Made by a program: the position numbers and the translations under genes | Shown: positions 6,044-49,058 of the stretch, piece by piece | How the letters are laid out: the number at the start of each line of letters is the position of its first letter | Numbering within the stretch: the first letter of the stretch is position 1 | IMG/VR virus record: IMGVR_UViG_3300028416_000015 | Direction: 5' to 3' (one strand) | DNA length: 64,000 nt | Origin: an uncultured virus (IMG/VR IMGVR_UViG_3300028416_000015) | Lineage: Duplodnaviria; Heunggongvirae; Uroviricota; Caudoviricetes; Crassvirales | The notes under the pieces: model-generated | Told to the model about the DNA's origin: nothing | What the model saw: only the letters and a program-made list of their open reading frames with translations | The model's database searches: none

Positions 6044-6063
6044 TTAAAAATAATTCTAATTAA

Positions 6064-25600: not shown

Positions 25601-28600
25601 GAAACATCTGAATTTGCAGACGTTGTAGGTGGTAGCGGTAGAGTTTCTAATATATCTAACTATAGAGAGGTAAATGGAATAGGTATATCTGAATATACTA
25701 ACCCAGAAAACGGACTTGTAGATGTAATAACGTCAGGAACATCTGACTCTGATTACGTAGGCTACGTTAGGATATATAAAAACGGCAAACCTACAAATAG
25801 ATGGACTTCTAAAATGGAGAACGCATCTAATAATAAAACAAACTTCAAAACAATGCTATCTGAAGTTCAAAAATTACTACCTGAAAACCATGAATATACA
25901 GAGAAAACAAGTATATCTACAGATGGTTTAAGGATTTACGGTCAACAATTAAACAGAGGATATGAGTATGCTTTAGATGAGAACGGTAATAGGCTTACTA
26001 ATAGAGTGGCTATAAATGGGGATTCTAGACAGAATATATTAGGTATTAATGTAAATATTGGTAGATTCTATAATATATCTGTAACTAATAATAATGATTT
26101 TGATAAGGTTAAAAAAGCATTAATTCCTTTAATATCATCACTAGGATTGAACGAGTCTAATATACATTGGGAGAATGGTACTGTAAAGATTGATTTGCCA
26201 GTGTTAAGAAATACATCAAAACAAAAAGAAAGCACAGAGCAACAGCAAGAAATAGCCGAGGTTAAAGAAGTTAAACAATACAAAGGTCAGAAGGCACTTG
26301 ATTGGTTAGATAATTTTGAGAGTAAGCTAGATGACATTACAGACCCTAAGAACTTCAATGATGCCACAAGGGTAATACCTGCTATGGCATTAAAAGGTAT
26401 TGTAAAAGCTCTCAAAGCATCCATTAAAGCTGGTATGACTATCAATAAAGCGATAGATAAGTACTTCAACGAAAATACCGAATATACTAAGGAACAGTTT
26501 GAGGAAGCAATGAGTATTCCTTCTAAGGTTAAGTCGGTTATTACTCAGTCTGCTAAAGATGAAAAGAAAGCATTTAAGGAAGGTAAAAAAGAAGGTAAGG
26601 TTGCAGCTGAAGAAAAATTAAAGCCAGTTATAGCCAAGCTAAAAGAACTAAAGAAAGACCAGGTTGCAGCTAAGAAATATATCTTAGAGCAAATTAAAGA
26701 GTTTGAAGGTAAGAAAGTTTTGAATGCTAAAGCTGTACTTAACAGACTTATGAGAGTGAACCTTAATAATCCAGTTGCTGTAGATAACTTTATCGAGTAT
26801 GCAGAGAAAGCTTTCAAGAATGCAGCGTATGTAGATAGGGTCAACGCTATTATTAAAATGAACAAATCTAGTAAGAAGAACTCTAAGAATCAACAGAATG
26901 CTGTAAAAGAGATGGCTAAAAGATTAGCTAGTATTGATCCTGTAATGGTTGAAGATTTAGATAAACTAGAAGTAATATCTTTGGAGGTTAAAGGTGCTAC
27001 TAAGAATGGATTTAAAGAACCTGCAGATATATCTAAAGTAAACGAGTACATAGATAAAGTTGAGGCTGAGATTAAAGAAAAGAAACGTCTTAATCTACTA
27101 GGAGAATTTTCTGAGTTAGTGAATGATGGTATCATCAACAAGAACTCTACATTAGAAGAGATAATGGAGGTGGTAGATAACTTAGAATCAAATGAAAATG
27201 TAGATGGTAAATCTATAGAAGAAAAGAAAGCTGAATTAAAACAAAAGTTTGAAAGTCAAAAGATAGAAGTACAGATGGCTATAAGAGAAAGTAAAACTGA
27301 TTTAGCGAAAAGTAAAGTCAAAGAAGCTTTAGATATAGACATAGATAAACTATCAATTTCCGATGCTTATAAATTAGTCACAGCTTTGGATAACTTTATA
27401 GTTAACGACATTGCTGATGGTTTAGGTCCTATTGTTAATAAAAGCATTGGTATTAAGAATGCAGAGAAATTTGCAAGACTAAAATATATAGCTCCTAGCT
27501 TTAACGCTATAACAAGAACTTTTGCAGATGTCTACAGTTCTATACCATTACTTGCTGATACTATGTTTGGTAACGTTAAAAAGGGAACAGCTTTTTTAAG
27601 AACAGCTGGATTTAACGCAATGCAAAGAATGTCGGTTACAGCTAGAATGAACGCCAAGAGAATAAATGACAACTATGTAAGTAAGTTTTATAAAACAATG
27701 CCAAATGGTGAGAAGTTCTTCTCTGTGAATAATATCTTTGAAAGAGGAGTAATTGCAGATATGCTTAGAACTAATGGTGATCCAAGAGACTTCAAAAGAA
27801 AGAAAGATCTTTTGTTTCAATCTGCTGATGCTTTACTTAAAGGAAATAAAGAAGAGGTTAAAAAAGGAACAGCATACAAGGAGGTTTTTGAAAAGATAGG
27901 TTTAGAACAAGCAGAGAATATTGATGACCTTAAAGTAGACCCTATAAATACAAGTGCTGTAAAATTCTGGATAAAAGAATGGTCTAAAATATATAGTGAC
28001 TTAAAAGAATTAAATAGTGTCGTTTATAATACTAGCCTTGAAAACGACATAGATTATACAACTAAAAGAATGTCTACTTTAAGCTACAAAGACAAAAGAC
28101 TGACTGAGGCTGATATAAAAGAAGCTAGTTCACTTGCTTTAGATTTAGGGATTGTTTCTGCTCAAGCTGGAACATTAAAAGAAGTTACTAGACCAAGTGC
28201 TATAAAGGATAGATATGTAGACCTTGATTTTGATATGTCTCAATCTAAATCAATGTTGGCTTCTCAGTTAGATTTACACACAACAGATATATCCCAACAA
28301 ATAAAAGCCTTCCTTGATAGCGAAGACTTTAATAAATCATTTGAGAAACCTGCTGATGCTGCAATGGTTAGAAGCAGAATGTCAGATCATGTAAATATGA
28401 CTAGAATGAAGAAAGGATTCTCTAGTAAAAAAGAGAATAAGATGATAATGGATTCTTTAGGTACTTTATCAAAAATAGCTACTAGGTGGACTTTAGGTGG
28501 TATAGCAGCAATACCAAAACAAACTATACCTGTTTTTACAAATACATTTTTTAATACTATTGCTTCACCTGACTTATTCTTCAAAGGTTTTATTAATCCT

Positions 28601-30094
28601 TTAATGGGTAAATCATCTATGAATGAGTGGATAGAAAATAATGACTTACCTATAACTATAAGAGGGCTAGAATCAAGAACAGTTATAGAGAGATCTGACA
28701 ATCTGCTTAAAGATTCTAAAGCAAAAAGTAAATTCAAGAAAGCAGGGGAGAGTATTGATAAGATATGGCTAGAAAAGTTTTTAGGTAACTCAGATGTATA
28801 TGCTGCTCGTTCTTCATTTATGACTTACTATCTACAGAGTTTAAGAAATCAAGGGCTAACAACAAATGTAAATTGGGATAATCATACACCTAATGAGAAA
28901 GCTGTAGAATATGCTCAACACATGGTAGATAGACAGCAGAATATATCTGATATTGCTGCAGCTGGTAGGCTTTTTTCTAGTGATAATGGGGCTGTAAAAT
29001 TTATTAGACAAGCGTTCTTCCCTTTCTCTTCATTTTTAACGAACTCAAAAGCTAAACTATTTGCTGATGTTAGATCGTTATCTGTACAAGATAGAAAAGA
29101 GTTAGCTAAAATAATTAAATCTGGTAAAATACCACAAGAAATAGGTGCTCCTTTATTGTCAATAATAGCCACACTTGCTGAGATTTCAATGTTCCAAGTA
29201 ATAGGTGTATACTTAAGAGATCTATACAAAGAAACATATAACTCACTTACAGGTAATGAGGAAGAAGAAGAAGATAAAGAAAAAAGAGAAAAATGGAATA
29301 TAGAAAGATTTCTAAAGCAAACTTTTGCAGATGTGGTTTCACCAGCTCCAGCTGTTGACTTCCTTGTTCTAAATACAATAAACTCCTTATATGAAAGTGT
29401 GTCAAAATCTACTTTTAATGAAGATAATCCTGAATACAAGGAACTTCTGGAAGAGGAAATGAAAAAATACGAGTACGAAACAAAAGAAGTTAAAAAGTTT
29501 AGGGAAGAAGAGTTTAAGAAAAAGTATCAAGATGAAGAGATGTTTGACTTATCTAATACATGGGAGGCTAGTGATCTTGATAAATTCGGTACGTTTGCAA
29601 TACCAGCACAAGTAGGTTTAGATATTATTGAAGGTGTTAAAGAATTAATCAATGGATACTACGAGAAAGAGTTTATGGGTACAGCTTCTAAAAAGTATTT
29701 TACGGAAGAACAGAAGGATATGAATAAAGAGATATTCGCTGGGAAGCTAATCACTAGGTTTTTACTTCCAGATCAAAGTTTAAGGAATATAGTAAATATT
29801 TACGATAGAGAGAATAAAAAGAATGCTCTTAACTCTAACCAATACCAAGAGTACATCAATCTAGACAAGAAAGCTTCTGATGATGAGGTGGCATTGATTA
29901 AGAAGGGGTATGATGCTGTAGATATAAAGGACTACATTAGGGTAGATGTTAAAGGTCTGAACGATAAACAGAAAGATACATACTTTGAGGTTATGCGTAA
30001 GGGTAAAAAGAGTGATGTATATACAGATGACTTAAAGTTATATGTAAAGAAAGGGTATTCGGCTAAGAAGATACTTGAGAAGCTTGAGGAGTAA
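22670..30094 (+). CDS. very large internal virion/ejection (polyvalent-type) protein
   Basis: 2474 aa; last gene of the structural arm; hydrophobic Gly/Ala segments plus long helical regions. Confidence 0.65.
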   Translation: MPLDVNTFAEKIKAKYPAYKDVDNQTLAEKIVEKYPTYKSQVDLTPVKKKEVTESATEDGSLDTPQVETQKPSESLDLDNGEFTGYPGKEKNKYKLVDNEWHDFDPEANEPRKIKSEGRINALNKYFKQDAYLSQSDKMVKEAEARLSKILGDDKTDVDVSKSATSKPEYLQIAEAAQEGNKEALAKALENKKTNDIIRKKKELESIEKKKFEDEAWSAVDVPFENEEDFAEEMNKRFNKHGFYFEETGFGDRVVGKYSPDGGFTITNEVEFTPDNIGQDKFLFFMDSKLSKSEAEALTVSGGKTDEERKRNYYETIKVRMELMSENPDRYGKDLISEGDAAKVINREAKILTNKSNQLSKEYEELSKYIDEYEKSPTPEGRLFIKNKSAELGLKEISIAKGYDDLNKLESNFNKALSVYKQTDEEKGTFLGNLGANFVSGATNLERMITEKSIDLLPYVEDLISGDMDFSDNDKKSKQLKRDILPNLEEGLLKIGSLGTTTKEYQQSDERGVIETTLGFLSESIGTAISAGGNPLLLKAGFFAQSYNSIKKEMRGEEFDGLTEAQKELVAVPYAMTIGALEKLGFKMSTSLAKKGVSNAVINGVIRKTFTSLPKGTSREIIEATIQKNILAAVTDKALKITSGGVIEGVTEGLQEYADVGTKNLANYLSGHEYFKDVPLLNTPEGFMKASEMALESFGYGMLGGNFMTAGSMAKEGIKSSILETGLNRSFKKDYENIMDEGYRASEKEAINISLRNGEISEKEAEEQKKEIDEKYVVYSQLSDDLFKKNVNKARKAAELIKEKNDITSAIEGKDKALVSSQTERINAINEELAILGQTEETVDITEEQIDALNDSEEIALSYTSEESIPEFLKPFAEKGLSGTAKKGLFGKTKEIQTYKVNATGKQIKDAYYAYNKSIGQYEKTDTTTDGDVQPGVEPSEAQGEGTDVQETVEPTGSEEQVEEVAVDVNRNTNLFPETSEFADVVGGSGRVSNISNYREVNGIGISEYTNPENGLVDVITSGTSDSDYVGYVRIYKNGKPTNRWTSKMENASNNKTNFKTMLSEVQKLLPENHEYTEKTSISTDGLRIYGQQLNRGYEYALDENGNRLTNRVAINGDSRQNILGINVNIGRFYNISVTNNNDFDKVKKALIPLISSLGLNESNIHWENGTVKIDLPVLRNTSKQKESTEQQQEIAEVKEVKQYKGQKALDWLDNFESKLDDITDPKNFNDATRVIPAMALKGIVKALKASIKAGMTINKAIDKYFNENTEYTKEQFEEAMSIPSKVKSVITQSAKDEKKAFKEGKKEGKVAAEEKLKPVIAKLKELKKDQVAAKKYILEQIKEFEGKKVLNAKAVLNRLMRVNLNNPVAVDNFIEYAEKAFKNAAYVDRVNAIIKMNKSSKKNSKNQQNAVKEMAKRLASIDPVMVEDLDKLEVISLEVKGATKNGFKEPADISKVNEYIDKVEAEIKEKKRLNLLGEFSELVNDGIINKNSTLEEIMEVVDNLESNENVDGKSIEEKKAELKQKFESQKIEVQMAIRESKTDLAKSKVKEALDIDIDKLSISDAYKLVTALDNFIVNDIADGLGPIVNKSIGIKNAEKFARLKYIAPSFNAITRTFADVYSSIPLLADTMFGNVKKGTAFLRTAGFNAMQRMSVTARMNAKRINDNYVSKFYKTMPNGEKFFSVNNIFERGVIADMLRTNGDPRDFKRKKDLLFQSADALLKGNKEEVKKGTAYKEVFEKIGLEQAENIDDLKVDPINTSAVKFWIKEWSKIYSDLKELNSVVYNTSLENDIDYTTKRMSTLSYKDKRLTEADIKEASSLALDLGIVSAQAGTLKEVTRPSAIKDRYVDLDFDMSQSKSMLASQLDLHTTDISQQIKAFLDSEDFNKSFEKPADAAMVRSRMSDHVNMTRMKKGFSSKKENKMIMDSLGTLSKIATRWTLGGIAAIPKQTIPVFTNTFFNTIASPDLFFKGFINPLMGKSSMNEWIENNDLPITIRGLESRTVIERSDNLLKDSKAKSKFKKAGESIDKIWLEKFLGNSDVYAARSSFMTYYLQSLRNQGLTTNVNWDNHTPNEKAVEYAQHMVDRQQNISDIAAAGRLFSSDNGAVKFIRQAFFPFSSFLTNSKAKLFADVRSLSVQDRKELAKIIKSGKIPQEIGAPLLSIIATLAEISMFQVIGVYLRDLYKETYNSLTGNEEEEEDKEKREKWNIERFLKQTFADVVSPAPAVDFLVLNTINSLYESVSKSTFNEDNPEYKELLEEEMKKYEYETKEVKKFREEEFKKKYQDEEMFDLSNTWEASDLDKFGTFAIPAQVGLDIIEGVKELINGYYEKEFMGTASKKYFTEEQKDMNKEIFAGKLITRFLLPDQSLRNIVNIYDRENKKNALNSNQYQEYINLDKKASDDEVALIKKGYDAVDIKDYIRVDVKGLNDKQKDTYFEVMRKGKKSDVYTDDLKLYVKKGYSAKKILEKLEE

Positions 30095-30100
30095 ATAATG

Positions 30101-30129
30101 AAGGGTAGCTAATAACTACCCTTTTTTTT
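30101..30129. terminator. terminator between the convergent arms
   Basis: AAGGGTAG-CTAATAA-CTACCCTT followed by a T tract. Confidence 0.75.
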
Positions 30130-30424
30130 ATTCCTTAATGAAACTACCATCCACTAACTTACCTTTCCTATCTTTAATCTCATTGTAGGCACTATTAAGG
30201 CAATCAGACATGTTTAGACCTAATTGCTCACAAAGTATTATTAACACTATATTAATATCTCCTATCGCATCAATAGTTTCATAAGGGTCTTTTTTAAGTA
30301 AAGCACTTGCTAGTTCTCCAACCTCTTCAGTTAGCTTAATAAACTGCTTAGGTGCGTTTTCTTCTTTGATTAAACCTCTTTCGGTTGCCCACTCAATTAC
30401 TTTTCTTTCTGTTAAACTTTTCAT
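30128..30424 (-). CDS. MazG-like NTP pyrophosphohydrolase
   Basis: KL.EEVGELA...DAIGD...AYNEIKDRKG motif; likely start 30424. Confidence 0.85.
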   Translation of the reverse strand: MKSLTERKVIEWATERGLIKEENAPKQFIKLTEEVGELASALLKKDPYETIDAIGDINIVLIILCEQLGLNMSDCLNSAYNEIKDRKGKLVDGSFIKE

Positions 30425-30627
30425 AATTTCTCTATTTCTTTTTTTACTTCTTCCCAATATTCTACAAATGACATTTCATCATTTTTAGATGGATAACAAT
30501 AACAAATTGTTTTAATTATTTCATTAACTGCAATTAATGCACATTGTTTTGAATCTTCCCACCCATCACTATACAATGATGATTGCATATCATTTACTAA
30601 CTGTTCTGCTTTTTCTTTTGGCGTCAT
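30421..30627 (-). CDS. hypothetical protein
   Basis: MTPKEKA..L...KQCALIAV.EI...YW.EVK.EIEKL. Confidence 0.75.
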   Translation of the reverse strand: MTPKEKAEQLVNDMQSSLYSDGWEDSKQCALIAVNEIIKTICYCYPSKNDEMSFVEYWEEVKKEIEKL

Positions 30628-30630
30628 AAT

Positions 30631-30786
30631 CTATCCATCTAAAGCTACATGATAAGCGTAGCATAATTTATTTAATTGTTCTTGTAATGTAAATGGGTGA
30701 TAATTTATCTGTATTCTTACAGATACACCTTTCTTTTTATAGATGAACTGCTCTACAACATGGCACATCTCTTCAACTGTTAACAT
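30631..30786 (-). CDS. 51-aa hypothetical protein (not in ORF track)
   Basis: MLTVEEMCHVVEQFIY...ALDG* fills the gap, closely abutting both neighbours. Confidence 0.55.
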   Translation of the reverse strand: MLTVEEMCHVVEQFIYKKKGVSVRIQINYHPFTLQEQLNKLCYAYHVALDG

Positions 30787-31055
30787 TCTTTCTTAAATTT
30801 TGGTGAACATCCTAAAGCAACTGTCGTTCTAAATAGCTTTCTTCTACCTACTGGAATCCTGTGAGCTTTTAAGATATTTGTTACTATCTCTTCATAAACA
30901 TTCCCCTCAATCTCGTGATCCATATATGGTATAACTTTCTGTCCCCACTCATTAGTCTCTGCCTCTTCCATTAGCTTATCAAAATCAGCCGATGGTTTAG
31001 ACGCTTTATACAGCTGCCTATATATCTCGAGTAATACTTTATCGTCTTTTTTCAT
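30780..31055 (-). CDS. hypothetical protein
   Basis: Likely start MKKDDKVLL after an A-rich leader. Confidence 0.65.
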   Translation of the reverse strand: MKKDDKVLLEIYRQLYKASKPSADFDKLMEEAETNEWGQKVIPYMDHEIEGNVYEEIVTNILKAHRIPVGRRKLFRTTVALGCSPKFKKEC

Positions 31056-31259
31056 TTCATTTTTTTTTAAAAATAATAACACCTCCCACCTACCAATGTT
31101 ATTTATGTTACAAGTCTATATGGTAACACCCGATGCCACGACAATTAGGCTGTCTGCATTCCCTCAAATGAAATTCCTAATTCATTTTTGAGCCAGTTGT
31201 TTTGGCTAATATATTAGTCAAATATAGTGTTTTTAACCCTAAATGAATAATATATTAGT

Positions 31260-32510
31260 CTAAAATAAATGTGTTAGACGGGCTACCTGCCCATATTTTG
31301 GGTGATGAATAAATCCTTCTACTGCTTTTGGAGATATAAAACCGTTACGGCTGTGCCAACCATCTGACCCTGAAGGGCTTCTTAGTGATTCTAAGGTAAC
31401 ACCAGGATGATCTTTTGAGGTTTTGTGGTGGACATGGTGAGTATATATATATCTGTGTTTAGTGTCTCCCCACATTTTAGGGTTCTCAGTAGCTAATAAT
31501 ATTGGAAGGATTGCATTTTTTGCACCATCACCATGAGTAGTTCCTATCATATTATCTCCGTATTGATACACTTTTCTGTGCATTAAATCACAATCAAACG
31601 TAATGTTATCACAATCTTTGTAATAAGTTTGAATTACGTCAGCTAATAAAGTACCTATCATCCAATCATGATTACTTGGATTGTGTACAAAATGTACGTC
31701 AGCTACTTCCAATAATCTATCTAGAACTTCAATATATAACTTCTTCGCTGTAGCGAATGCTGTGTACCAATTAGAATCTACATCTTGAGGTGTGCCTGAA
31801 GTAGTTGTCTTCTTTGGGTTATCTGTATGAAGAATATCATTACCCCCAACAAAGAGAATCTTGTCTATGTTAAACCCAGAAGATTTTTCAATCAATCCTT
31901 CTACACCCTCTCTTACTCTTTTACAAGCAATCTTACTGTTATATGAGTCACCTGTTTCAAAAACTGTAGCTAACTTCTGTATATGTACATCAGCAGGATC
32001 TACTACTAATAAATGTCCGTCTTTACTGTTTCTATCACTCCTAACAATAGTTTTAGGTAAAGTTGATATTTCCTTTATACTTTCAATTAAAGTATCTTTA
32101 AACTCTTGTGATCCATCTGTGTTCCTAACGTCAGAGGAAGCTATATTGTAATAAGCACCTTTACCAGTATGTGTTACAAGCTTATAAGTTTTAACTTGAC
32201 TTAATGGTATATTGTAATACTCACAATACTCATCTATTGACATTATAGTGCCATCCTCTCTTAGTGCAGATAATATAGATTTAGCACCACTTCCATACTG
32301 ATTAGTGTTAGTCTCTGTCACATTCTCTGTGTCCTTGCTTGAGTTTATTATCTTACTAGCCATCGCTCGAAAGGACTCTGTGTATTCAACTCCTTTGTCT
32401 TGGCATAACTTACGAGCAGCCTTCGCTATACTAGAAATATCTTCGTAGTTATTAAAAAGCTCTTCTTCGTTCTCTAGTAAGAACTCTTTTATATTAATCT
32501 TTGTATTCAT
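31260..32510 (-). CDS. calcineurin-like metallophosphoesterase
   Basis: DVH, GND..H, NHD, HGD and H.HH motifs. Confidence 0.8.
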   Translation of the reverse strand: MNTKINIKEFLLENEEELFNNYEDISSIAKAARKLCQDKGVEYTESFRAMASKIINSSKDTENVTETNTNQYGSGAKSILSALREDGTIMSIDEYCEYYNIPLSQVKTYKLVTHTGKGAYYNIASSDVRNTDGSQEFKDTLIESIKEISTLPKTIVRSDRNSKDGHLLVVDPADVHIQKLATVFETGDSYNSKIACKRVREGVEGLIEKSSGFNIDKILFVGGNDILHTDNPKKTTTSGTPQDVDSNWYTAFATAKKLYIEVLDRLLEVADVHFVHNPSNHDWMIGTLLADVIQTYYKDCDNITFDCDLMHRKVYQYGDNMIGTTHGDGAKNAILPILLATENPKMWGDTKHRYIYTHHVHHKTSKDHPGVTLESLRSPSGSDGWHSRNGFISPKAVEGFIHHPKYGQVARLTHLF

Positions 32511-32661
32511 TACAACTTCTTTTTACATCTCTTATTGTCTGTGACAACTTTATACATATTTGGTCTATAACACAAAACTCCCTGTCCATCAGAGCTTCGT
32601 AAAGTTCATCAGTCAGAGAGTTTATTTCTTCCATCGTTGAGTTAACGTAATTTAATTCCAT
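32494..32661 (-). CDS. 55-aa hypothetical protein (not in ORF track)
   Basis: MELNYVNSTMEEINSLTDELYEALMD...; TATCTTTG box at 32674-32681. Confidence 0.55.
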   Translation of the reverse strand: MELNYVNSTMEEINSLTDELYEALMDREFCVIDQICIKLSQTIRDVKRSCNEYKD

Positions 32662-32770
32662 CAGTTTTTATCTCAAAGATAGTAGTTTTTATTTAGATAC
32701 AGTGTATTTTTTATGGATTTTTAATACATTATATTCAATAGTAAACTGATTAAGTTTGTCACGTTTTATA

Positions 32771-33202
32771 CTACTTTTTGTTACTGATCTTATCAGTCGC
32801 TTTAGACTTTCTGGGTCTGCCTGGCTTTCGTTTAACATTTTTAACGGTCTCAGTGTCTCCTTGTATATCAGTCGCTCTTTCTTCAGTTTCAACCTTCTCG
32901 ACAGTGTCAGGTTTATGTCCACTATCGCCAAGAACGTCTTTGATGTAGTTTCTGTAGTGTATTTGTCCATAGCTTTGGTTGTTTGATCTGTTGTCTTTTT
33001 CACTCTCATAATGTTCGTCAGTCTCGAAAGACAACCTAGAGTTTAATTCTCTATCTGCGTTTCTTATTTTAGTTATCAGCATTCGGCTTGTCTTAGCCAT
33101 ATCGTGTCTGAATATCTTGTTATCTACTAGATCCTCTAGGAAGTCTGCCATTACTGGTAGGTGTAGATAAAGTGCTCTTAATTTTTCTTCTAAGCTTAAC
33201 AT
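32771..33202 (-). CDS. hypothetical protein with AT-hook-like KPGRPRK tail
   Basis: ORF track; motif. Confidence 0.6.
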   Translation of the reverse strand: MLSLEEKLRALYLHLPVMADFLEDLVDNKIFRHDMAKTSRMLITKIRNADRELNSRLSFETDEHYESEKDNRSNNQSYGQIHYRNYIKDVLGDSGHKPDTVEKVETEERATDIQGDTETVKNVKRKPGRPRKSKATDKISNKK

Positions 33203-33207
33203 AATTT

Positions 33208-33393
33208 TTATTTTTTTAAGTTTGTTAATTGTTTAAATTCTTCATCACTAATATACCTAACAGAATCCTCTGCAATGTTTAGTGCAATTTTAACTGCATC
33301 TTGTGTTTTAGGTTTTGGATTTCCGTTTAGTCTGCAAATCTTTTTGAAGAAGGCAATTTGTTCTTCATCTAATAATAATGTGTTTTTTACCAT
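33208..33393 (-). CDS. small hypothetical protein, possibly ribbon-helix-helix-like
   Basis: 61 aa; TACATTTG box at 33411-33418. Confidence 0.5.
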   Translation of the reverse strand: MVKNTLLLDEEQIAFFKKICRLNGNPKPKTQDAVKIALNIAEDSVRYISDEEFKQLTNLKK

Positions 33394-33462
33394 GTCTTTA
33401 ATGTTTTAAACAAATGTAGTGATTAATGTTATTACAACAATAGAAAAAGTTGTAATTGTTGT

Positions 33463-33500
33463 AAAATAAAACGCAACTAACTGAAAAACAGTAGTTGCGT
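33463..33500 (-). terminator. intrinsic terminator downstream of the cassette array
   Basis: ACGCAACTACTG-TTTTT-CAGTTAGTTGCGT followed by TTTATTTT on the minus strand. Confidence 0.6.
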
Positions 33501-33528
33501 ATATATAGTTGTTAGCGGTAATACACTA

Positions 33529-33702
33529 CTAACTATTATACATATCATCATATATTCTTTTACTGCAATCTAAGCATTCATATTCTATATACGCATCTGG
33601 GTAGTCTCTATACACCTCTTTTTTGTTCAGGTGCTTACATTTATTAGAAGTAATACCGCTAACAATGTGTAAAATCCATGTTTTTAATTTTTTAAGTAAC
33701 AT
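33529..33702 (-). CDS. 57-aa Cys/His small protein starting inside an attC-like loop (not in ORF track)
   Basis: MLLKKLKTWILHIVSGITSNKCKH...ECLDCSK...NS*. Confidence 0.55.
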   Translation of the reverse strand: MLLKKLKTWILHIVSGITSNKCKHLNKKEVYRDYPDAYIEYECLDCSKRIYDDMYNS

Positions 33703-33791
33703 ATCTACTTGTTTTTAAGGCTATTACTATTTGGTAGTGTCGAGCGTGTGACGAGCAAAAACACGTATCTTACACTCAACGTTATAGGTAA

Positions 33792-34412
33792 TCACTTGTT
33801 AGCTTCATAAAACGCTTTTGCGAACCCTTGACTACACCAACTTCTTATACTCATATCATCATTAATTAAATGCTTTGCCCATTCCATCTCTGGTATTAGT
33901 TCTTTACTTGATTTATGTAATATTGCTAAAGATGGTTTTTTTCTTGTTGGTCTTATATATAATTTTTCATTTTTTGGAACATCTTCCCACTTATTATAAA
34001 CTTTTTCTGGTATATTAAAATCACCCCATAAAGCAGTGTGTTTAGTCCAAGCCGAACCATATTCCCAAGGTTGATATTTAATAGTTGGTTTACCTAAAAA
34101 TTTATGTAAATCACCTTTAGCAGGGTTTTCTATTACCCAAAATTTAGGTTTACATTGTTTTATTATTCTTAAACAATGATTAACTAAAAACATTCCTTTT
34201 TCATAATTTTTTTTATCTTCACTTCTTCCTTGTATATTACTAAATTCAGTACATACTGGATTAGCTATAATTCCATAAACATTGTCTGGTGGTGTATAGT
34301 TTTCTACACCAATATCAATACCTATCTTTATAACTTCATAATTATTATCTAATTGATAATATCTACTATCACTTCCTATATCTGCACATAAATGCAGTAT
34401 TATTTTTTTCAT
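33792..34412 (-). CDS. C5 cytosine DNA methyltransferase-like protein
   Basis: ANPVC.EFS (motif IV-like) and WVIENP (motif VI); degenerate motif I; likely start MKKIILHLCAD. Confidence 0.65.
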   Translation of the reverse strand: MKKIILHLCADIGSDSRYYQLDNNYEVIKIGIDIGVENYTPPDNVYGIIANPVCTEFSNIQGRSEDKKNYEKGMFLVNHCLRIIKQCKPKFWVIENPAKGDLHKFLGKPTIKYQPWEYGSAWTKHTALWGDFNIPEKVYNKWEDVPKNEKLYIRPTRKKPSLAILHKSSKELIPEMEWAKHLINDDMSIRSWCSQGFAKAFYEANK

Positions 34413-34478
34413 ATCTTTATTATTAAATAACCTATAACACATTATAAAATTCATTAAAACGAAATTTTATAATTCACG

Positions 34479-34664
34479 TTATATGCAATACTCATTGTAA
34501 GTAATCAACCAACCACTATTGTTATACCATTCAATTAACTCTACTCTTTCTTTTTTAGTAATTGTAATATAAATCATTTTAAATTCACCATTAGGAAAGT
34601 TAACTCTATAACAGTCGTTAATTGTATTATCTTCTTCAAAATCAATATCTCTTATGTACTGCAT
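34479..34664 (-). CDS. hypothetical cassette protein
   Basis: ATG and TAA both lie inside the cassette terminal repeats. Confidence 0.65.
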   Translation of the reverse strand: MQYIRDIDFEEDNTINDCYRVNFPNGEFKMIYITITKKERVELIEWYNNSGWLITYNEYCI

Positions 34665-34714
34665 ATAACATTATTTAAAAATCATTGAAACGCTTTTTAC
34701 ATTTAGCGTTAGCT

Positions 34715-35140
34715 TTATTGTTTCAACTGCTTTATCGCAAAATTTGCGTAGTCTATAATTTTTCTAAAGTCATCTTCATCTTGACCTTTTTTTCTCCAAT
34801 TGTACTTATCTATGTTGAACCTAACACAAGCCAACAACTCTTCCTTAGTCATGTTAGCCTCAGATCTCTCGAAAGTGTCGATTCCGATATTGTATTGATG
34901 TGGTTTGGTAGATGGCTCTTCTTTAATTTTAAATATTCTACTATTTGCATCTGAGAACTCAAATAAAGGTCCATTGGGTAATTCTGCCTTTACAGTAAAA
35001 CTATCTATGCCTACTGTAATTACTTCATATTCTTTACCTTCAATAATGGCAAATTGATTATTATCCATGATACAATCATCTACTGCAATCAACTTTGTAC
35101 CTACTTTTATTTCACTTATACTCTTTCCATTCTCCATCAT
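34715..35140 (-). CDS. protein with C-terminal DUF3310-like domain
   Basis: P..Y..GID......F...NI.KY.WR.K.Q..DD..K...Y pattern. Confidence 0.55.
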   Translation of the reverse strand: MMENGKSISEIKVGTKLIAVDDCIMDNNQFAIIEGKEYEVITVGIDSFTVKAELPNGPLFEFSDANSRIFKIKEEPSTKPHQYNIGIDTFERSEANMTKEELLACVRFNIDKYNWRKKGQDEDDFRKIIDYANFAIKQLKQ

Positions 35141-35369
35141 ATAACTTTGTTTTAATTCCTAATTTACTTAACTCATCAGCTCTGTAGACCTGAAGTGGTC
35201 TTAGCTTCTTTCCTTTCTGTTTAACCTCTACAAATAACACATCGCTATTCTTAGGGATAGCTATCAAGTCTGCAATACCATTTTTATTTGTAGATATTAG
35301 CTTAATCACATAATAATTATCCTTCTCTAACTCTTTAATACATTTTGATTGTATTTTACTTTCTAACAT
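35112..35369 (-). CDS. VRR-NUC (PD-(D/E)xK) nuclease
   Basis: E..IQ...GIADL...FVEVK....L.PLQ; start MLESKIQ. Confidence 0.85.
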   Translation of the reverse strand: MLESKIQSKCIKELEKDNYYVIKLISTNKNGIADLIAIPKNSDVLFVEVKQKGKKLRPLQVYRADELSKLGIKTKLYDGEWKEYK

Positions 35370-36594
35370 TATAATCCTTTTTAAAAATGTTAACTGTGTA
35401 TTTCTTTTTCTTCTGGACCACCTTATAGATATTCTCCTCAAGACCACCCTCAGCAAATACCCAATACACTTTATTCACTAACCTATCCTTTGTAGTCAAT
35501 CTATCTCTAGCTTGAAAGTAGCTGACTGCAGAGTGCTGTATGTTATACATTACCAGGCAATCAGCCTTACTTAAGTTGATACCCTCTCTCGAACTAACAA
35601 CCTGACCAACAAAGTGTTTGTCTGTAGAATTAAATTCATCTATGTCGTTAGTGACATTATCTTCACCAAATACTTGAGTCAATAAATTCAGCTCCTCTTT
35701 GAACACATAGATTATAGCTAACTTTTTACCAGAGAATCTCTCCTTTATAAACTCAGCCTTAGTTGTATCTATAATCATAGAGTTGCCTGACTCAAACTTT
35801 ATTGTACCACTTGATAGTTGGTGTATCTTCTGCATTAACTTAGCTGCTGTATCTGCAAGAACAACTTCACTCTCACCATTTATGACTAAATCCTCTTTTA
35901 TCTTCTTAATTAATCCGTAAGTTACAGGTTTCATTTTAACTTTCAAAACTTCTTCGTCTATAGATGTAGAAAAACCTGCTTCTTCTTGAGTAAGCTTAAT
36001 AATCAAATGACTTATATCGCCCATTATCTTGTCCTCTAATCCACCTGAATAGTCGTTGTGAAGACGTTGACCTATACGTTTCTGCTTAAGCATTACATAA
36101 TCATTAGCCCATTTATAGAAATTAGTGTATCTACTCCATGGTGAATACATCGACACCCACATCTGATGATAGAACTGACTGTAAGACTCTGGGCTCATCG
36201 TTCCAGATAATAGTATCATTGGTTTAGATGAGAACCTAGCCTTTAAATCTTTAGCCATCTTACAAGGCTTAGGGAAAGAACCTAGTCTGTGTGACTCATC
36301 CATAACAATAAGATCAAAATCATTATCCTCAAGCTTATGTAGTGATTCATTGTTTATTACAATAAGATCAAACTTATTATCATAACCGAAATTAGAGTAG
36401 TCGCTAACAATACTAGGTATAGCTTTCTTTTTAGTCAAAAACAATACCTTTTTAGCGTTATAAAGACTGCAAGTGTTTAGAGCCATTAATGTTTTTCCGA
36501 CTCTCACTTCGCAAGACAAAGCAACTAAATTAAATTCTCTGAGTATTTTAACAGCCCTATTAGATACATCTATTTGATAATCACGCAGTTTCAT
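35356..36594 (-). CDS. SF2 (SNF2-like) helicase
   Basis: LRDYQ, VGKT, DESH, LSGT, EGINL and Q.RDR motifs. Confidence 0.85.
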   Translation of the reverse strand: MKLRDYQIDVSNRAVKILREFNLVALSCEVRVGKTLMALNTCSLYNAKKVLFLTKKKAIPSIVSDYSNFGYDNKFDLIVINNESLHKLEDNDFDLIVMDESHRLGSFPKPCKMAKDLKARFSSKPMILLSGTMSPESYSQFYHQMWVSMYSPWSRYTNFYKWANDYVMLKQKRIGQRLHNDYSGGLEDKIMGDISHLIIKLTQEEAGFSTSIDEEVLKVKMKPVTYGLIKKIKEDLVINGESEVVLADTAAKLMQKIHQLSSGTIKFESGNSMIIDTTKAEFIKERFSGKKLAIIYVFKEELNLLTQVFGEDNVTNDIDEFNSTDKHFVGQVVSSREGINLSKADCLVMYNIQHSAVSYFQARDRLTTKDRLVNKVYWVFAEGGLEENIYKVVQKKKKYTVNIFKKDYNVRK

Positions 36595-38972
36595 ATCTTT
36601 AAACTATTTTGTGTTGGTACATATCTTTCAAATTTTACGCATCTAGCATTTATAGATGAGTCTCTCTCTTCTGTTGGCTTCTGACCATAAGCAAAGTCTC
36701 CCCAAGCATAAAGCCAATGCCTGAACTTTATAATAGGCATACTATACTTACCTCTAGGACCAAAATCAGGATTATCTTGACCAAACTGAGTGTATATCTC
36801 ATTTATGGTGTAACAACCACCCACCTTAGTGTATTTGTTCTGTGGATCTTTAGCCCATTCATAGAAATCATGGTGAGTTTGAGCAATAAATTTACGCTCC
36901 TCAAGATTCTTAAACTTACTTTTCCTTAGACCATACTTAAGGTACATCTGTAAATTACCTATCATATAGCTATCAAATTTGTTCCACTCTTCTTTAGACC
37001 AATCGCTAAATAAGTAGTGACCAAACTCATCCTCTGGAGTAAAGTTCTTACTGTAATACTGACTAAACTCTAGCTCCCACTTACGTCTCTCGAATGAATT
37101 ACCTACACCTTTTATGGCATAGTTGGTAGTGATTACTGTCTTAGGAGAACGTTCAAATGGTATGTATATCTCATCCTTGTTCTTCTTCTCTAGGGTTATA
37201 CCCTCAGTAATAATAGAGAACAACTTCTCAAAGTCAAACCCTTTATTAACATCATCGAATACAAGTAACTGAGTATCAGCAGATACACGTTGGTAAGGAA
37301 ATGATTTTGTAAAACTGAACGTCTTACCATCAATATTTACTTTCCTTTTCATGTGACCAATAGCCGACACAAACATACCTTTACCTGTACCACCTTCTGG
37401 ATTGTCACTTATCACCTCATCATTTATAATGACTGCTGGACAATACCCACTTGGCTTATAACTATGTAACAAAAAACCTATAGTACTCTCTATAGAATTA
37501 ATACGCTCCTCATCTCCTCCTCCTACATTATTAATAAATTTCCTGTACTCAGAGTCAGAGCTATCGACTAATTTAAAGTCACGATCAATCTTTTGATTAT
37601 CCCATACTAATCCTTTCACACTCATATAGTCTAAGGTTTCTATACCTTTCGCTGTAACCTTAACTACACAGTTGTTGTAGTAAAGATAAGCTTCTTCTTT
37701 TGTGTCTCTCATAATACTTGGTTCTACTCTATCTAAGAAAGACAAATGGTCCTCCTTAAACAGTTTTGTTTTATCAGCGAAGTAATTATAAATAGATAAG
37801 TCATCCATACCATAAAGGTCATCTAATGTCGAATCTTTAATATTATCATCTGTCGCATCACTTATTATATTATTATTAATATTAACAAATACGAAGTTCT
37901 TACCTCCTTCAACATAATACTTAAAGAATCCTTTTGACTGTAGGTATTCTTTGTACAAGTGGTTAACGTGCTTAACTTCTCCTCTACTGTTCTTCATCCA
38001 GAAATTAGAATCAGATGAATTAGAGCTCACAACAGACTCAATCTGTTCTGTTGGCACATCTTTATGTAATTGTATTATATCTTCTTTAGGTACTCCCTTA
38101 CGCACCATCTCGTTAATGCTATCAATCTTTTTATCGTCTTCGTAGAACTTAGTTCCAAACTTAGCGATGTCCTTGTAAGCTGAGTCTATTATTGTTCTTA
38201 TTTCATTAATAGGAAAGTCTTCAGAAGAAAACTCCGACAACTTAGTAACTGCATCAATCTTATCAACGCCATACTCATTAAAAGCTGATGCTAATATGAA
38301 TACATTGTTACTCCTTTGCCCAGGTATTAAACCAAACTTACCATCCCACCATTTCATTAAACGTCTAATAACCTCGTTATTATCATCCAACTTAATAGTA
38401 GGTCGAGATGTATTAACGTCAAACGTCTGATGCTCCTCTACAAGAATTTCGTTCCACTCTTCACTCTCATAGTTTACATAAACCTCAGGATCATAAGACT
38501 CATAACATACTCTTGATATATTTTTTGAAGTTATATCAAACTCCTTGCAATCGTAATACTTCTCTAGCGATAGGAAGTAATTCTTATGGTTCTTAACGTC
38601 TTTTGGTATCTTCACTAATACTTTCATACCATCACCTGATGGAGATGTAAATACAGCGAATGAATATTTGTCATTACAAAATTTGTGTCGTGCGTTAAGC
38701 ATATCCCATTCATCATCATAACCATCAAAGTCAATACAGATGAACCCAGAGTGCTCTAATATTGAGTTGTCAGATCTTTTATTGAATTTTCCTGAGAAAC
38801 AAATTGCAGGTAAACCTTTCTTAATTTCATTTCTTTTAGTCTTGTCTTTTTCATTTCTTACCTTCTCAACAATATTTTTTGAAGCACCATTCCTTATTCT
38901 ATCTATAGCCTTTTCAACAGTTACGAAGAAAGGTTGTCCAGTCTTTTGGACAGATTCAAAATATGTTATCAT
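36591..38972 (-). CDS. primase-helicase (VirE/BT4734-like primase + PriCT + P-loop helicase)
   Basis: SGFICIDFD, F.SPSGDG.K, G.R.N..F, GGTGKG and FDD motifs. Confidence 0.85.
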   Translation of the reverse strand: MITYFESVQKTGQPFFVTVEKAIDRIRNGASKNIVEKVRNEKDKTKRNEIKKGLPAICFSGKFNKRSDNSILEHSGFICIDFDGYDDEWDMLNARHKFCNDKYSFAVFTSPSGDGMKVLVKIPKDVKNHKNYFLSLEKYYDCKEFDITSKNISRVCYESYDPEVYVNYESEEWNEILVEEHQTFDVNTSRPTIKLDDNNEVIRRLMKWWDGKFGLIPGQRSNNVFILASAFNEYGVDKIDAVTKLSEFSSEDFPINEIRTIIDSAYKDIAKFGTKFYEDDKKIDSINEMVRKGVPKEDIIQLHKDVPTEQIESVVSSNSSDSNFWMKNSRGEVKHVNHLYKEYLQSKGFFKYYVEGGKNFVFVNINNNIISDATDDNIKDSTLDDLYGMDDLSIYNYFADKTKLFKEDHLSFLDRVEPSIMRDTKEEAYLYYNNCVVKVTAKGIETLDYMSVKGLVWDNQKIDRDFKLVDSSDSEYRKFINNVGGGDEERINSIESTIGFLLHSYKPSGYCPAVIINDEVISDNPEGGTGKGMFVSAIGHMKRKVNIDGKTFSFTKSFPYQRVSADTQLLVFDDVNKGFDFEKLFSIITEGITLEKKNKDEIYIPFERSPKTVITTNYAIKGVGNSFERRKWELEFSQYYSKNFTPEDEFGHYLFSDWSKEEWNKFDSYMIGNLQMYLKYGLRKSKFKNLEERKFIAQTHHDFYEWAKDPQNKYTKVGGCYTINEIYTQFGQDNPDFGPRGKYSMPIIKFRHWLYAWGDFAYGQKPTEERDSSINARCVKFERYVPTQNSLKI

Positions 38973-41009: not shown

Positions 41010-41549
41010 TTATTTTATTTTTAAATTTAACTTAAGATTTATTAATGCTTTATAAGCTTCATCTTCTTCAATATAACTTTTTGTAAAAAACTGCTTTCCG
41101 TTTTTCCATATAGAACCTCTCCATCTTATGTTTGAATGTTTTATGTATTTACTTACACCTATATATTTAGAAGTTTTATTTTTTTTATCCAAAGATTTTA
41201 TTGTATTATCTCTCTGCGTTATTATTTGAATATTTTTAATGTTATTATTAAACTTATTTCCATCTATATGATCAATAACCAATCCCAAACTTTTATCGTA
41301 TCTATGATTAAAGAATGCAAGAGCTACCAATCTATGAATAGTAAAAGTTTCTCTTTTTGAATTTACAGATAAAACTGTTGATAAATACCCTCTACCGTTT
41401 ATATGTGGACTCATAAGTTTACCTTTTTTTATAAACTTATATTTACCTTTCATCATAACCAACCTATCCAAACTTCTAACGTTACCTAGATCACTCACCT
41501 GATAAATCCCTTCATACCCAGGGACGTCTTTCCAAATTTCTTCTTGCAT
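41010..41549 (-). CDS. NUMOD4-HNH(-AP2-like) homing endonuclease family protein
   Basis: E.WKDVPGYEG.YQVS.LG.V.S, IHRLVA..F, DHIDG.K.NN, SKY.GV. Confidence 0.85.
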   Translation of the reverse strand: MQEEIWKDVPGYEGIYQVSDLGNVRSLDRLVMMKGKYKFIKKGKLMSPHINGRGYLSTVLSVNSKRETFTIHRLVALAFFNHRYDKSLGLVIDHIDGNKFNNNIKNIQIITQRDNTIKSLDKKNKTSKYIGVSKYIKHSNIRWRGSIWKNGKQFFTKSYIEEDEAYKALINLKLNLKIK

Positions 41550-41696
41550 ATTTTTGCGTTTAAATAATTGCGTTTAAATAAATGAAATGGGGAAACCGTA
41601 AACGCTTCGGCTTTCGATAAGGTAATTACTCCTCGTCTATCCCCATCGCAAATATAATAATTTATTTTAAAAGTCAAGTATTTTTTTAATTTAATT

Positions 41697-41789
41697 AAAA
41701 AACCTGTACTTCAGAGGTGGAAGACTCATCATACAGGCTTTTGTAATGAATTTCTTTAAACGCTTCCACTCGTTTGTTCGTCAAATGTA
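41697..41789 (-). ncRNA. kissing-loop structured RNA, copy C
   Basis: Promoter box, hairpin with loop AGTGGAAG, second hairpin whose loop contains CTTCCAC, then a U tract. Confidence 0.55.
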
Positions 41790-41830
41790 TATTTAATTAT
41801 CTAATAATACAAATTATTTATAAAAAATAT

Positions 41831-41965
41831 TTATACCTCATCATCTTTAAGACCTGTCTTTACAATAACAGTATAATGAACATTATACATCCTGTTCCAT
41901 TTAGCTCTTAAAACTAATGCTTGTCTTAATCTTCTAGTAATCTCTCCTCTTCTAAGTCTATACAT
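41831..41965 (-). CDS. 44-aa hypothetical protein (not in ORF track)
   Basis: MYRLRRGEITRRLRQALVL...DDEV*. Confidence 0.35.
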   Translation of the reverse strand: MYRLRRGEITRRLRQALVLRAKWNRMYNVHYTVIVKTGLKDDEV

Positions 41966-43944: not shown

Positions 43945-44207
43945 AGGTCTTCATCACTTTCACTCTCATCCATGTAATATCGACCAGGAGATATGTCAAA
44001 ACTATTAACACAAAAGCTACGCCATCCGTATTTACTTATCGCACTTGTTTTATATAATTTAGCATTGTAGTCAATGGTTGGTATCGATAATTTTATATAT
44101 CCGTCCTCTATTTTAACGATCAAGTATTCGTTCTTAAACATCAAATGTTTAGAGCTTACCACATAATTATTAGCTCTACTATGTTTATTTATATTTATAT
44201 AATTCAT
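43914..44207 (-). CDS. hypothetical protein
   Basis: ORF track. Confidence 0.6.
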   Translation of the reverse strand: MNYININKHSRANNYVVSSKHLMFKNEYLIVKIEDGYIKLSIPTIDYNAKLYKTSAISKYGWRSFCVNSFDISPGRYYMDESESDEDLLVFDVTVPR

Positions 44208-44875
44208 ATTTTATTTAATTTAATTAACGCATCCTGATAATATTTGCTAGCTTCTTCTTCTGAATCAAAACTACCTAGGTGTTTTAATTTACCGTTTATT
44301 CTTATTTGTGATACCCATTTACTTCTCTGTTTACGCCAAAAAACACCTTTATATTTAGAAGAGTATTTATGTTTCTTGATTTTCACTTCAGTACCTTCTT
44401 CTATAGATTTTAATGCATTCTGATAATATTTATTGGCTTCTTCTTCTAAATCAAAATAACCTAAGAATTTTGATTTTCCGTTTATTTCTATTGATGACAT
44501 CCATTTATTGCTATTTTTACTCCAACAAACACCAGTGTACTTTGATGATCCCTTCCTATCTTTACTTGTGTTTTCTCTAACACTTATAAGCTGTAAATTA
44601 GATAATCTATTGTTTAACTTATCATTATCTATATGATCTACTATTATTTTCATTGTGCCATCTGGAGCATGATTCAAGAATGCCATCGCTACCAATTGGT
44701 GTATTTTAACATTTTTTACTTTTTCTTTATCACAAAGATTAAGACATAAATAACCCTTGTTATTTACAGATGGTTTTAAAATTTTTTCTCTGTTAAATTT
44801 AAGGCTCTTAACTCTACCTAGGTCACTCACTTGATAACTGCCTTCGTAACCAGGTACATCTTTAAATATTTCCAT
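44204..44875 (-). CDS. NUMOD4-HNH-AP2x2 endonuclease family protein
   Basis: MEIFKDVPGYEG.YQVS, DHIDNDKLNN, two SKY.GV.W...KW...I.INGK...LG.F..EEEA repeats. Confidence 0.85.
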   Translation of the reverse strand: MEIFKDVPGYEGSYQVSDLGRVKSLKFNREKILKPSVNNKGYLCLNLCDKEKVKNVKIHQLVAMAFLNHAPDGTMKIIVDHIDNDKLNNRLSNLQLISVRENTSKDRKGSSKYTGVCWSKNSNKWMSSIEINGKSKFLGYFDLEEEANKYYQNALKSIEEGTEVKIKKHKYSSKYKGVFWRKQRSKWVSQIRINGKLKHLGSFDSEEEASKYYQDALIKLNKI

Positions 44876-44977
44876 AAACAAAAAGCCCATCAAGTTTTCA
44901 GGGTAGTGCATCCTTACTCACTTAATGGGTCTTCAATAATGTTTTTAATACTGGCACTACTCAGTTATACAAAGATA
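44876..44977 (-). ncRNA. kissing-loop structured leader RNA, copy B
   Basis: Loop AGTAGTGC pairs with GCACTAC in the second hairpin loop. Confidence 0.6.
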
Positions 44978-48598: not shown

Positions 48599-49058
48599 AA
48601 CTTTTATTTTTATTTATTTATTAATTTAATTATTTGTACCTATACAACAAACCAATGTTATATAGGTATATATAATAAGCCACGTGAAACTGCTTACACT
48701 CTATTAATCCCTTATCTTTTTGGATAGGTTTTGACTATATACCAACTGAGAATTGTATTTATAGCCCTACAACTTGGACGGTATTTTATGCCCCGTTTTT
48801 TGCAGCCAGGGCAAAACTAAATTAATAGTTAAGAGTTTACCCCTGTTAATTATACTTTTATATTTCAATGAACGACTTACGCAATTAAATGCAGCCTTAA
48901 ATACTCAATTCTAGTCTGACAAATAGTCTGAACAGTCTTATTCCATTACGTTTGCCCTCGCATCCGTTAACTTGTTACTGTTATTTATTTGCCGTTAAAA
49001 ATCTTTAGATTCTTTTTTCAAGGATTAAACAACTCGTTTGTTGTTCGTTTTGTTGTTA

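Follow-up and report, generated by a model that had tools for sequence, protein, structure and literature searches.

A putative array of mobile gene cassettes with short hairpin sites in a crAss-like phage

In an uncultured crAss-like virus (IMG/VR record IMGVR_UViG_3300028416_000015), a stretch of 64,000 nucleotides (nt), referred to here as the window, contains at positions 33511–34713 three consecutive small units that are probably mobile gene cassettes, which would be gained, lost and moved by site-specific recombination at the tetranucleotide GTTA with a recombinase supplied in trans. Each cassette would consist of one small gene and one folded hairpin site (TAAC, a variable stem, a CATTAAAACG loop and GTTA). 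Comparison with other viral and bacterial sequences revealed a family of such sites, complementarity between the two ends of individual cassettes, breakpoints at GTTA, presence and absence of the array, including a relative that is free of it, and relocation of a cassette that carries a methylase gene. These observations bear out the cassette reading of the first-pass annotation, which had described the locus as an integron-like array.

A family of short hairpin sites

The three adjoining units (33511–33663, 33781–34438 and 34478–34669) have inverted ends that are particular to each unit. All coordinates and strings given for them in the first-pass annotation were correct on re-reading of the window sequence, and the fourth GTTAGC that it placed at 34708 is present. 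The two short spacers are related, as it had also claimed, spacers 2 and 3 being 79 % alike over 29 nt; within the window, TCATTNAAACG occurs without mismatch at 34451 and 34682 only. The strict pattern common to these two spacers matched 49 viral loci, and a looser one (AACA, N9–14, CATTAAAACG, N14–22, GTTA) matched at least 131 viral stretches and at least 122 genome stretches, a search that by our own estimate is expected to yield many chance matches genome-wide, so that only those genome matches confirmed by a covariance model (R1) were kept. R1 confirmed 46 matches in 78 genome loci, almost all of them from Bacteroidota.

The sites of this family are about 46 nt long and consist of (T)ATAAC-A, a variable stem, the loop CATTAAAACG, the return stem, 4–5 unpaired bases and C-GTTA; they have in common with integron sites an imperfect hairpin with a 5'-AAC box at one end and a GTT-3' box at the other. 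All elements examined have AAC and TT, while the first position of the right box varies, with G in 120 and A in 19 of 139. In the asymmetric internal loop, the 3' side has 2–3 extra bases, and some copies of the family carry loop insertions, as does spacer 1 of the window. The stem was found to covary, with a score of 0.143 compared with 0.069 in shuffles, a value that was equalled in none of the 500 shuffles and that lies above all slid controls; pair 18–48, for example, is AU in 22 sequences and GC in 13. RNAalifold predicted no consensus structure for the alignment (A1), and the structure was supplied by hand.

The 64-kb window has two full copies and one disrupted copy of the site, all of them at these cassettes, and a site was present in only 3 of the 100 loci drawn from relatives of the window phage's helicase, DUF3310 or exonuclease genes. 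The hairpin site is not a general signal of the window phage or of its lineage. The complete site-bearing viral genomes contain 3, 5 and 9 copies, and arrays of two to four sites on the same strand occur at many viral and bacterial loci, the three sites of the window all lying on the plus strand. A search of Rfam returned nothing near threshold that resembled the site, and blastn of the 86-nt site region against phages gave no match, the query probably being too short or masked as low-complexity. In the literature searched, neither the family nor its loop sequence nor any integron-like system in phages of Bacteroidota was found to be described; subscription journals and supplements may hold more.

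Complementarity of cassette ends

In the end test, the 16 nt starting from the GTTA of the left site were compared with the reverse complement of the 16 nt ending at the TAAC of the right site; the test was applied to successive sites on the same strand and scored on the six unit-specific positions (5–10) in 40 distinct units. For the 23 units of up to 700 nt, the mean end match was 4.22 of 6, with 70 % of the units scoring at least 5 and 35 % scoring 6. In the controls, the mean was 2.04 when the flanks on either side of a single site were compared (n=139) and 2.34 when ends were taken from different loci (n=494), and the observed mean was reached in none of 10 000 permutations. Among the bacterial units, five of nine score 5–6. 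Short units share with integron cassettes a start that complements the unit's own inverse core and not that of its neighbour. It is proposed that each unit's ends complement one another and differ from those of its neighbours because they would pair in a circular cassette.

At position 11 after GTT, A is present on the left end in 115 of 139 sites and G in the complement of the right end in 72 of 139, which, once the ends are paired, would give a conserved A–C mismatch. In attC sites, strand or orientation is marked by extrahelical bases, and by analogy the mismatch at position 11 might do the same.

Within the window, inverted repeats of 9 nt number 403, compared with 399.5 in shuffles. A chain of three abutting GTTA-led repeats of at least 9 nt was obtained in none of 1000 Markov shuffles and a chain of two in 4.1 % of them, the GTTA prefix having been picked after the data were seen and the AT-only prefixes ATTT and TAAA also reaching a chain of three. 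A generic test for inverted-repeat chains found chains of three in 100 % of shuffles, and over 114 related loci GTTA-led repeats were not enriched, with GTTA ranking 48th of 256 prefixes. Because the prefix was chosen post hoc, the case rests on the comparative data, that is, on end matching and breakpoints.

Breakpoints, variation of the array and relocation of a cassette

For the comparison of breakpoints, 140 distinct sites with 80-nt flanks were paired between different contigs. All 13 pairs that have only the left flank in common share the whole hairpin and diverge directly after GTTA, while in the one pair that has only the right flank in common the likeness begins at GTTA and the hairpins are unrelated; two contig pairs share both flanks. 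Because the left-flank pairs keep the hairpin and part at GTTA, the hairpin appears to travel with the unit on its left, and exchange would take place where 4–5 nt are common to all sites. This corresponds, at a resolution of about 4 nt, to the crossover at G|TT of the 3' box that is a feature of integrons, and it matches the geometry 5'-G|TTRRRY-3' given in the sections considered here of Qi et al. 2023 (Front Microbiol 14:1091391; PMC9892861). A cut after position 1 would fit both the covariation of position 4 across units and the presence of A at position 1 in 19 of 139 sites.

Variation at the locus was assessed by aligning contigs of the metagenome runs X3–X6 to positions 31000–37000 of the window at 80 % likeness; window stretches without contig cover in these runs (33613–34617 in most of them) were not counted as absence. 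One X6 contig joins 33519 to 34709, so that 1189 nt are skipped and all three units are gone, and the skipped stretch has GTTAGC at both ends. Contigs of relatives from X3 and X6 extend to 33516 and then stop, and a contig in X4 and X5 has only 34664–34710, corresponding to site 3, in common with the window, with unlike DNA on either side. The exact 26-nt pattern of the left junction had no match in the metagenome contigs. Taken as single metagenome contigs, these data are suggestive of variation of the locus in nature and are not proof of it. X4 and X5 each contain a contig in which 31203 is joined to 35064, with the intervening letters unread; the 3860 nt passed over extend from the exonuclease gene through the cassettes to DUF3310, and this may represent a second, larger variant of the locus or another phage.

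Relocation is seen for the methylase cassette of unit 2. At a locus of another phage (L001), a methylase with 89 % amino acid identity is carried by a cassette at 5175–5975 between two family sites; it lies directly upstream of a DUF3310 gene (48 % identical), while the methylase of the window lies downstream of its DUF3310 gene. At the nucleotide level, the two loci are homologous from the GTTA end, across the gene and as far as the 5' leader, and on both sides the homology ends at the family sites. The ends of the L001 cassette differ from those in the window, yet they complement each other at 10 of 12 positions. Because the two cassettes have different ends that are each self-complementary, the pairing itself appears to be under selection.

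Gene orientation and comparison with known systems

In the viral units, the longest open reading frame (ORF) is reversed relative to the site in 39 of 40, with the site upstream of the gene, whereas in the bacterial units it is co-oriented, with the site downstream, in eight of nine. The integron arrangement, in which an ORF is co-oriented with and upstream of its attC, is accordingly not that of the phage units. This opposite orientation suggests separate phage and host cassette pools. In chromosomes of Flavobacteriales, R1-validated sites form same-strand arrays, with four sites each at loci L357 and L364, and the cargo of the bacterial arrays includes redoxin, amine oxidase, SRPBCC, GNAT and other genes. 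At one locus of a Saccharicrinis chromosome (L336), two identical IS91-family (Y2_Tnp) genes, at 2732–3952 and 5243–6463, each lie beside an R1 site.

The family and sedentary chromosomal integrons (with IntI, attI and attC) have in common imperfect hairpins based on AAC and GTT, crossover at the 3' GTT, own-end complementarity and arrays in one orientation, and in the bacterial arrays of the family each ORF is followed by its site, as in integrons. The family differs from them in that its sites are short with an invariant loop, the phage ORFs are reversed and the recombinase described below falls under the TIGR02249 cut-off. As tested, the array works like an integron and departs from one in two features, namely a canonical IntI and the orientation of the phage ORFs.

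Clusters of attC sites lacking integron-integrases (CALINs) have been reported in virulent phages in the sections considered here of Qi et al. 2023 (PMC9892861). As in the window, hairpins of the AAC...GTT type in the same orientation are found there between single genes of a lytic phage without an integrase, with methylase cargo. One of those sites belongs to the present family, as the primer sequence of P12002L_attC1 is identical, letter for letter, to the R1 match at 30006–30059 of Polaribacter phage P12002L. According to the same sections, P12002L_attC1 was predicted by HattCI only and was the sole one of six sites without verified IntI1 junctions (attI1); they do not describe the family, the conserved loop, end statistics, breakpoints, reversed ORFs or a link to an Xer-like recombinase. 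In the P12002L genome (L428), R1 sites flank the annotated DNA methyltransferase genes gp35 and gp36 (29248–32284) and lie beside gp54 (38118–38939); methylases recur as cargo.

Three other systems invite comparison. Promoter-stem-loop (PeSL) modules of T4-type phages are likewise repeated intergenic stem-loops around small accessory genes in variable regions of lytic phages; in these modules, repeat homology drives exchange and a promoter is carried, whereas the family has breakpoints at a fixed edge of 4–5 nt and cassette-specific ends, and no promoter consensus was found in it. In pdif modules, as proposed here, genes are bounded by sites for an Xer-type recombinase acting in trans, but the pdif sites (XerC/XerD, Acinetobacter plasmids) are 28-bp duplexes in alternating inverted orientation without a hairpin, while the family sites are hairpins in direct orientation. 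Elements of the IS200/IS605 type are not matched either, with no Y1 HUH transposase among 74 window ORFs and with one hairpin per unit.

The candidate recombinase

As the first-pass annotation had stated, no integrase is apparent in the window: no tyrosine recombinase was detected among the 74 ORFs of at least 70 amino acids that were scanned against Pfam, an absence that holds for the window, whose ends do not overlap, and not for DNA beyond its ends. Three genomes (G005, G007 and G008) were selected for their arrays, and in each of them the protein that best matches the integron-integrase model is encoded 1.2–3.3 kb away from an R1 site, on the same strand. In Aquimarina (G008), two units with the end signature, as read by eye, are present in intergenic regions just after the recombinase gene (126.9–128.1 kb). 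In viral record G004, a relative of this recombinase (263 amino acids, 38 % identical; L150 4829–5620) is encoded at a distance of about 1 kb from two sites.

The recombinase, of about 380 amino acids, passed the NF040815 model ("site-specific tyrosine recombinase/integron integrase") with 229.1 bits against a cut-off of 220, and scored 199.5 bits with TIGR02249, below the cut-off of 265. It has 16 amino acids where TIGR02249 has 58 positions, and the resulting gap of about 42 profile positions is at what we take to be the place of the IntI-specific insertion. No IntI with the specific insertion was found next to an array. The first-pass annotation had named an integron integrase as the enzyme, and this part of it was not sustained, given that IntI1 yielded no verified junctions on P12002L_attC1 and that the recombinase beside the arrays scores too low and is too short for TIGR02249. 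In the parts considered here of Smyshlyaev et al. (2021), the IntI insertion is described as not fully conserved within the integron-like recombinase subgroup. Whether the Xer-like recombinase beside the arrays is the enzyme acting on the sites is about evenly balanced.

No R1 site was found within 1.5 kb of recombinase genes, and when one recombinase protein was used as the query of a scan, its own locus was the only match. In the Flavobacteriaceae genomes (G008 and G010–G039), the gene is usually present in single copy, and at least 15 of 29 matches are no more than 4 kb away from where a contig ends, as though assembly were interrupted by repeats adjoining the gene.

Proposed mechanism and alternative explanations

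In the proposed mechanism, the crossover would take place in the GTTA at the 3' end of a site, by which cassettes could be gained, lost and moved. Circular intermediates are most likely; in the circle, the two ends of a cassette would pair and extend the stem of the site, which would fold as a single strand. The recombinase is presumed to act in trans, the best candidate being a tyrosine recombinase of the Xer/IntI-like kind that either the Flavobacteriaceae host or a co-infecting phage would provide, while the methylase cargo could plausibly serve in protection against host restriction. More tentatively, and with the balance tilted somewhat against it, the data might reflect a distinct integron-like system of Bacteroidota and their phages, in which a near-universal Xer-like recombinase of Flavobacteriaceae, without the IntI insertion, acts on short conserved-loop hairpins; lytic phages would keep their own pool of reversed-gene cassettes, which during infection would be exchanged between phages, and perhaps also with host arrays, by means of the host enzyme acting in trans.

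Integrons have been regarded as bacterial devices and, by IntegronFinder, as nearly absent from Bacteroidetes; in the part of the IntegronFinder 2.0 report considered here, a complete integron is given for one Bacteroidetes genome only, that of Salinibacter ruber. The cassette logic described above is found in lytic marine phages and in chromosomes of Flavobacteriia, with sites that are barely visible to standard tools and with a candidate enzyme other than a canonical IntI. Confirmation of it would mean that virulent phages can take up and exchange accessory genes, those for anti-restriction among them, while encoding no recombinase themselves, and that a second lineage of hairpin-site cassette recombination exists. 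The build-up of hypervariable phage regions becomes testable in this way, as sites, predicted circles and a candidate enzyme are defined and cultured hosts are available in Polaribacter, Aquimarina and Cellulophaga.

Several results weigh against recombination of cassettes by an enzyme acting in trans. The evidence for recombination is comparative throughout, without observed circles or events, and the array-free joint in X6 comes from a single contig, whose shorter side amounts to 33 letters and whose intervening letters are unread. The compensating end changes in the two methylase cassettes could reflect any pairing, including pairing in RNA. The 17 units longer than 700 nt have a mean score of 2.00 in the end test and show no end matching, although such units may span several cassettes. 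As DNA, the hairpins of the window are weak (−4.6 to −5.6 kcal/mol, z of −2.2 to −3.2), and the lowest-energy DNA fold of site 3 differs from the family stem. With respect to the enzyme, P12002L_attC1, although a family member, was not recombined by IntI1 in the sections considered of the study cited above (PMC9892861); the 74 window ORFs include no tyrosine recombinase, Y1_Tnp or Rep family at E ≤ 0.001–0.01, and none of the three complete site-bearing viral genomes has a match to PF00589. The recombinase family occurs in 27 of 31 Flavobacteriaceae genomes, and its nearness to a site could be coincidence. Of 12 further Flavobacteriaceae genomes, 1 has R1 sites at a distance of up to 10 kb from the recombinase gene, and sites are present at 3 of 80 viral recombinase loci compared with 3 of 100 control loci, R1 being narrow and tied to one loop, so that these negative linkage results are weak too. 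A generic scan for YAAC...GTTR hairpins downstream of the recombinase, which at its first threshold missed the window's own sites, gave 0.12 per kb on the same strand compared with 0.17 on the opposite strand, and hence no enrichment.

It is also conceivable, but unlikely, that the hairpins are regulatory or RNA elements (promoters, terminators, processing signals or protein-binding sites) and that the genes are shuffled passively by homologous or microhomology recombination between the repeats, in the manner of PeSL modules. The position of the site in phage units, 15–20 nt upstream of the start codon and often with a conserved leader, would suit such a role, as would the lack of a recombinase in the window and the strictly conserved loop, which is unusual for attC sites; stem covariation, moreover, is expected of any functional hairpin. 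A regulatory signal would nevertheless be hard to reconcile with only two to three copies per 64 kb, all at cassettes, and with the rarity of the site at the 100 loci of relatives, or with its place downstream of the genes in eight of nine bacterial units, which leaves no fixed position relative to transcription. Exchange driven by homology predicts breakpoints anywhere in the 46 nt and chimeric stems, whereas 13 of 13 lie at the GTTA edge, and it does not predict cassette-specific end complementarity across a gene. The middle promoters of a crAss-like phage have a different motif: those mapped experimentally as host-type in phi14:2 read TTG...TAnnTTTG in the part considered here of the report (bioRxiv 10.1101/2020.03.07.982082). 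This motif is seen upstream of phi14:2 g070, g075 and g108 and is absent from the hairpin sites, and R1 found no full-length match in the 50–100 kb region of phi14:2, the best hit having 24 bits (E = 0.0062) over 34 nt of the 51-position model.

That the paired ends act in RNA, where a stem of the 5' and 3' flanks would control translation or mark processing and would be kept in place by selection, is very unlikely. Such a role would account for the start and stop codons of unit 3 lying inside the paired ends and for the different yet self-complementary ends of the two methylase cassettes, but it leaves unexplained the ending of homology at GTTA, the presence or absence of the array as a block and the relocation of a cassette; the same end pairing occurs in bacterial units with their genes on the other strand, and a stem of 9–10 bp enclosing 150–650 nt would be weak. 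Single-strand transposition by an HUH/Y1 enzyme recognizing the hairpins, as in IS200/IS605-like or REP/RAYT-like systems, is extremely unlikely, even though HUH/Y1 enzymes recognize hairpins of conserved sequence and cleave at short fixed motifs and IS91-family genes stand beside sites at one bacterial locus (L336). There is one hairpin per unit instead of two subterminal ones, neither Y1_Tnp nor a Rep family was detected among the scanned window ORFs, and cassette arrays are the better match for rows of many different single-gene units that all point the same way.

The individual cassettes and their cargo

At the left boundary of the array (33462–33514, plus strand), a strong hairpin, GCAACTA / TAGTTGC, is followed 12 nt further on by GTTG|TTAGC. 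Its DNA fold of −11.0 kcal/mol has a z of −6.05, and R1 gives this stretch no score. The GTTGTTAGC boundary region is a probable insertion point and may represent an attI-like site or else a degenerate member of the site family.

Cassette 1 (33512–33781, plus strand) would comprise 270 nt if cut at G|TTA. Its ends are GTTAGCGGTA (33511–33520) and TACCGCTAAC (33654–33663), and in an inverted-repeat search the end repeat extends to 15 of 16 complementary positions. The cassette is completed by site 1 (33660–33784, plus strand), a family site in which an insertion of about 75 nt replaces the loop; its arms GTGTAAAAT and ATCTTACAC, of 19 nt, are 84 % complementary, and its flanks resemble family B sites, such as that at L156. 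R1 gives site 1 12.8 bits (E = 4.1, over 33658–33701), and its assignment to the family was made by eye. The cassette encodes an ORF of 57 amino acids on the minus strand (33529–33702), with a CxH...CxxC cysteine spacing that by eye is zinc-ribbon-like; it has no Pfam or PHROG family match and no relative among 521 loci. Its ATG (33702) is located inside the loop insertion of site 1, and the frame crosses the 3' arm of the site together with GTTA; a start codon or signals may have been supplied to this ORF by the insertion.

Cassette 2 (33782–34478, plus strand; 697 nt) has the ends GTTATAGGT (33781–33789) and ACCTATAAC (34430–34438) and contains the methylase gene and site 2. The gene (33792–34412, minus strand) encodes an orphan, cytosine-5-like DNA methyltransferase of 206 amino acids; this gene, recognized in the first pass as methyltransferase-like, matches phrog_757 (E = 7.7e-25), while PF00145 is matched weakly and below cut-off (E = 0.0025). 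Annotated methylase homologues of 204–208 amino acids are found in Vibrio, Thiohalocapsa and Bacteroides phages. Site 2 (34435–34481, plus strand) consists of TAAC, a perfect 11-bp stem, the loop CATTAAAACGA and GTTA, and is scored by R1 with 62.1 bits (E = 3.9e-12); its DNA fold is −5.2 kcal/mol, with a z of −3.0.

Cassette 3 (34479–34708, plus strand; 230 nt) has the ends GTTATATGCA (34478–34487) and TGCATATAAC (34660–34669), in an end repeat that extends to 21 of 26 positions in the inverted-repeat search. It carries an ORF of 61 amino acids on the minus strand (34664–34479), whose start ATG and stop TAA lie within the end repeats, in agreement with the earlier description, and which has no Pfam or PHROG family match. 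Site 3 (34666–34711, plus strand) is near the commonest form of the family and reaches 69.8 bits with R1 (E = 5.2e-14). At the right junction, GTTAGC (34708–34713, plus strand) is a direct repeat of 33511–33516 and abuts the stop codon of the DUF3310 gene.

The phage and the neighbourhood of the array

The window belongs to a phage, as it encodes a terminase, a portal protein, crAss muzzle-protein domains, GroEL and GroES homologues and an endolysin. The nearest named relatives of this phage infect Flavobacteriia, and the metagenome runs that contain it are marine or estuarine; it is a marine, crAss-like phage of the lytic type, probably with a flavobacterial host. Among GenBank phages it has no close relatives, the sole match being the methylase gene at 65–71 % nucleotide identity, and the primase of the closest genome, MW202828, has 50 % amino acid identity, which is too distant for a comparison of synteny. 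Locus L023 was rejected as a relative, as it has the exonuclease gene alone in common with the window.

The minus-strand genes of the array sit between another ORF of 61 amino acids (33208–33393) and the DUF3310 gene (34715–35140, minus strand), beyond which lie a VRR-NUC gene, an SNF2-type helicase gene and a BT4734-type primase gene, in that order. Elsewhere in the window there are four genes of the HNH/NUMOD4 homing-endonuclease type, one of them with AP2 (41010–41549 and 44204–44911 on the minus strand, 50321–51046 and 53257–53643 on the plus strand), and none of these adjoins the cassettes. An ORF of 2474 amino acids at 22670–30094 (plus strand), which follows the crAss muzzle-like genes, has no PHROG or Pfam match; its length and location make it a possible virion RNA polymerase of the crAss-like phage type. 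Two non-coding stretches that separate divergent or early gene blocks, at 48599–49353 (756 nt) and 41678–41925 (249 nt), may be origin or control regions.

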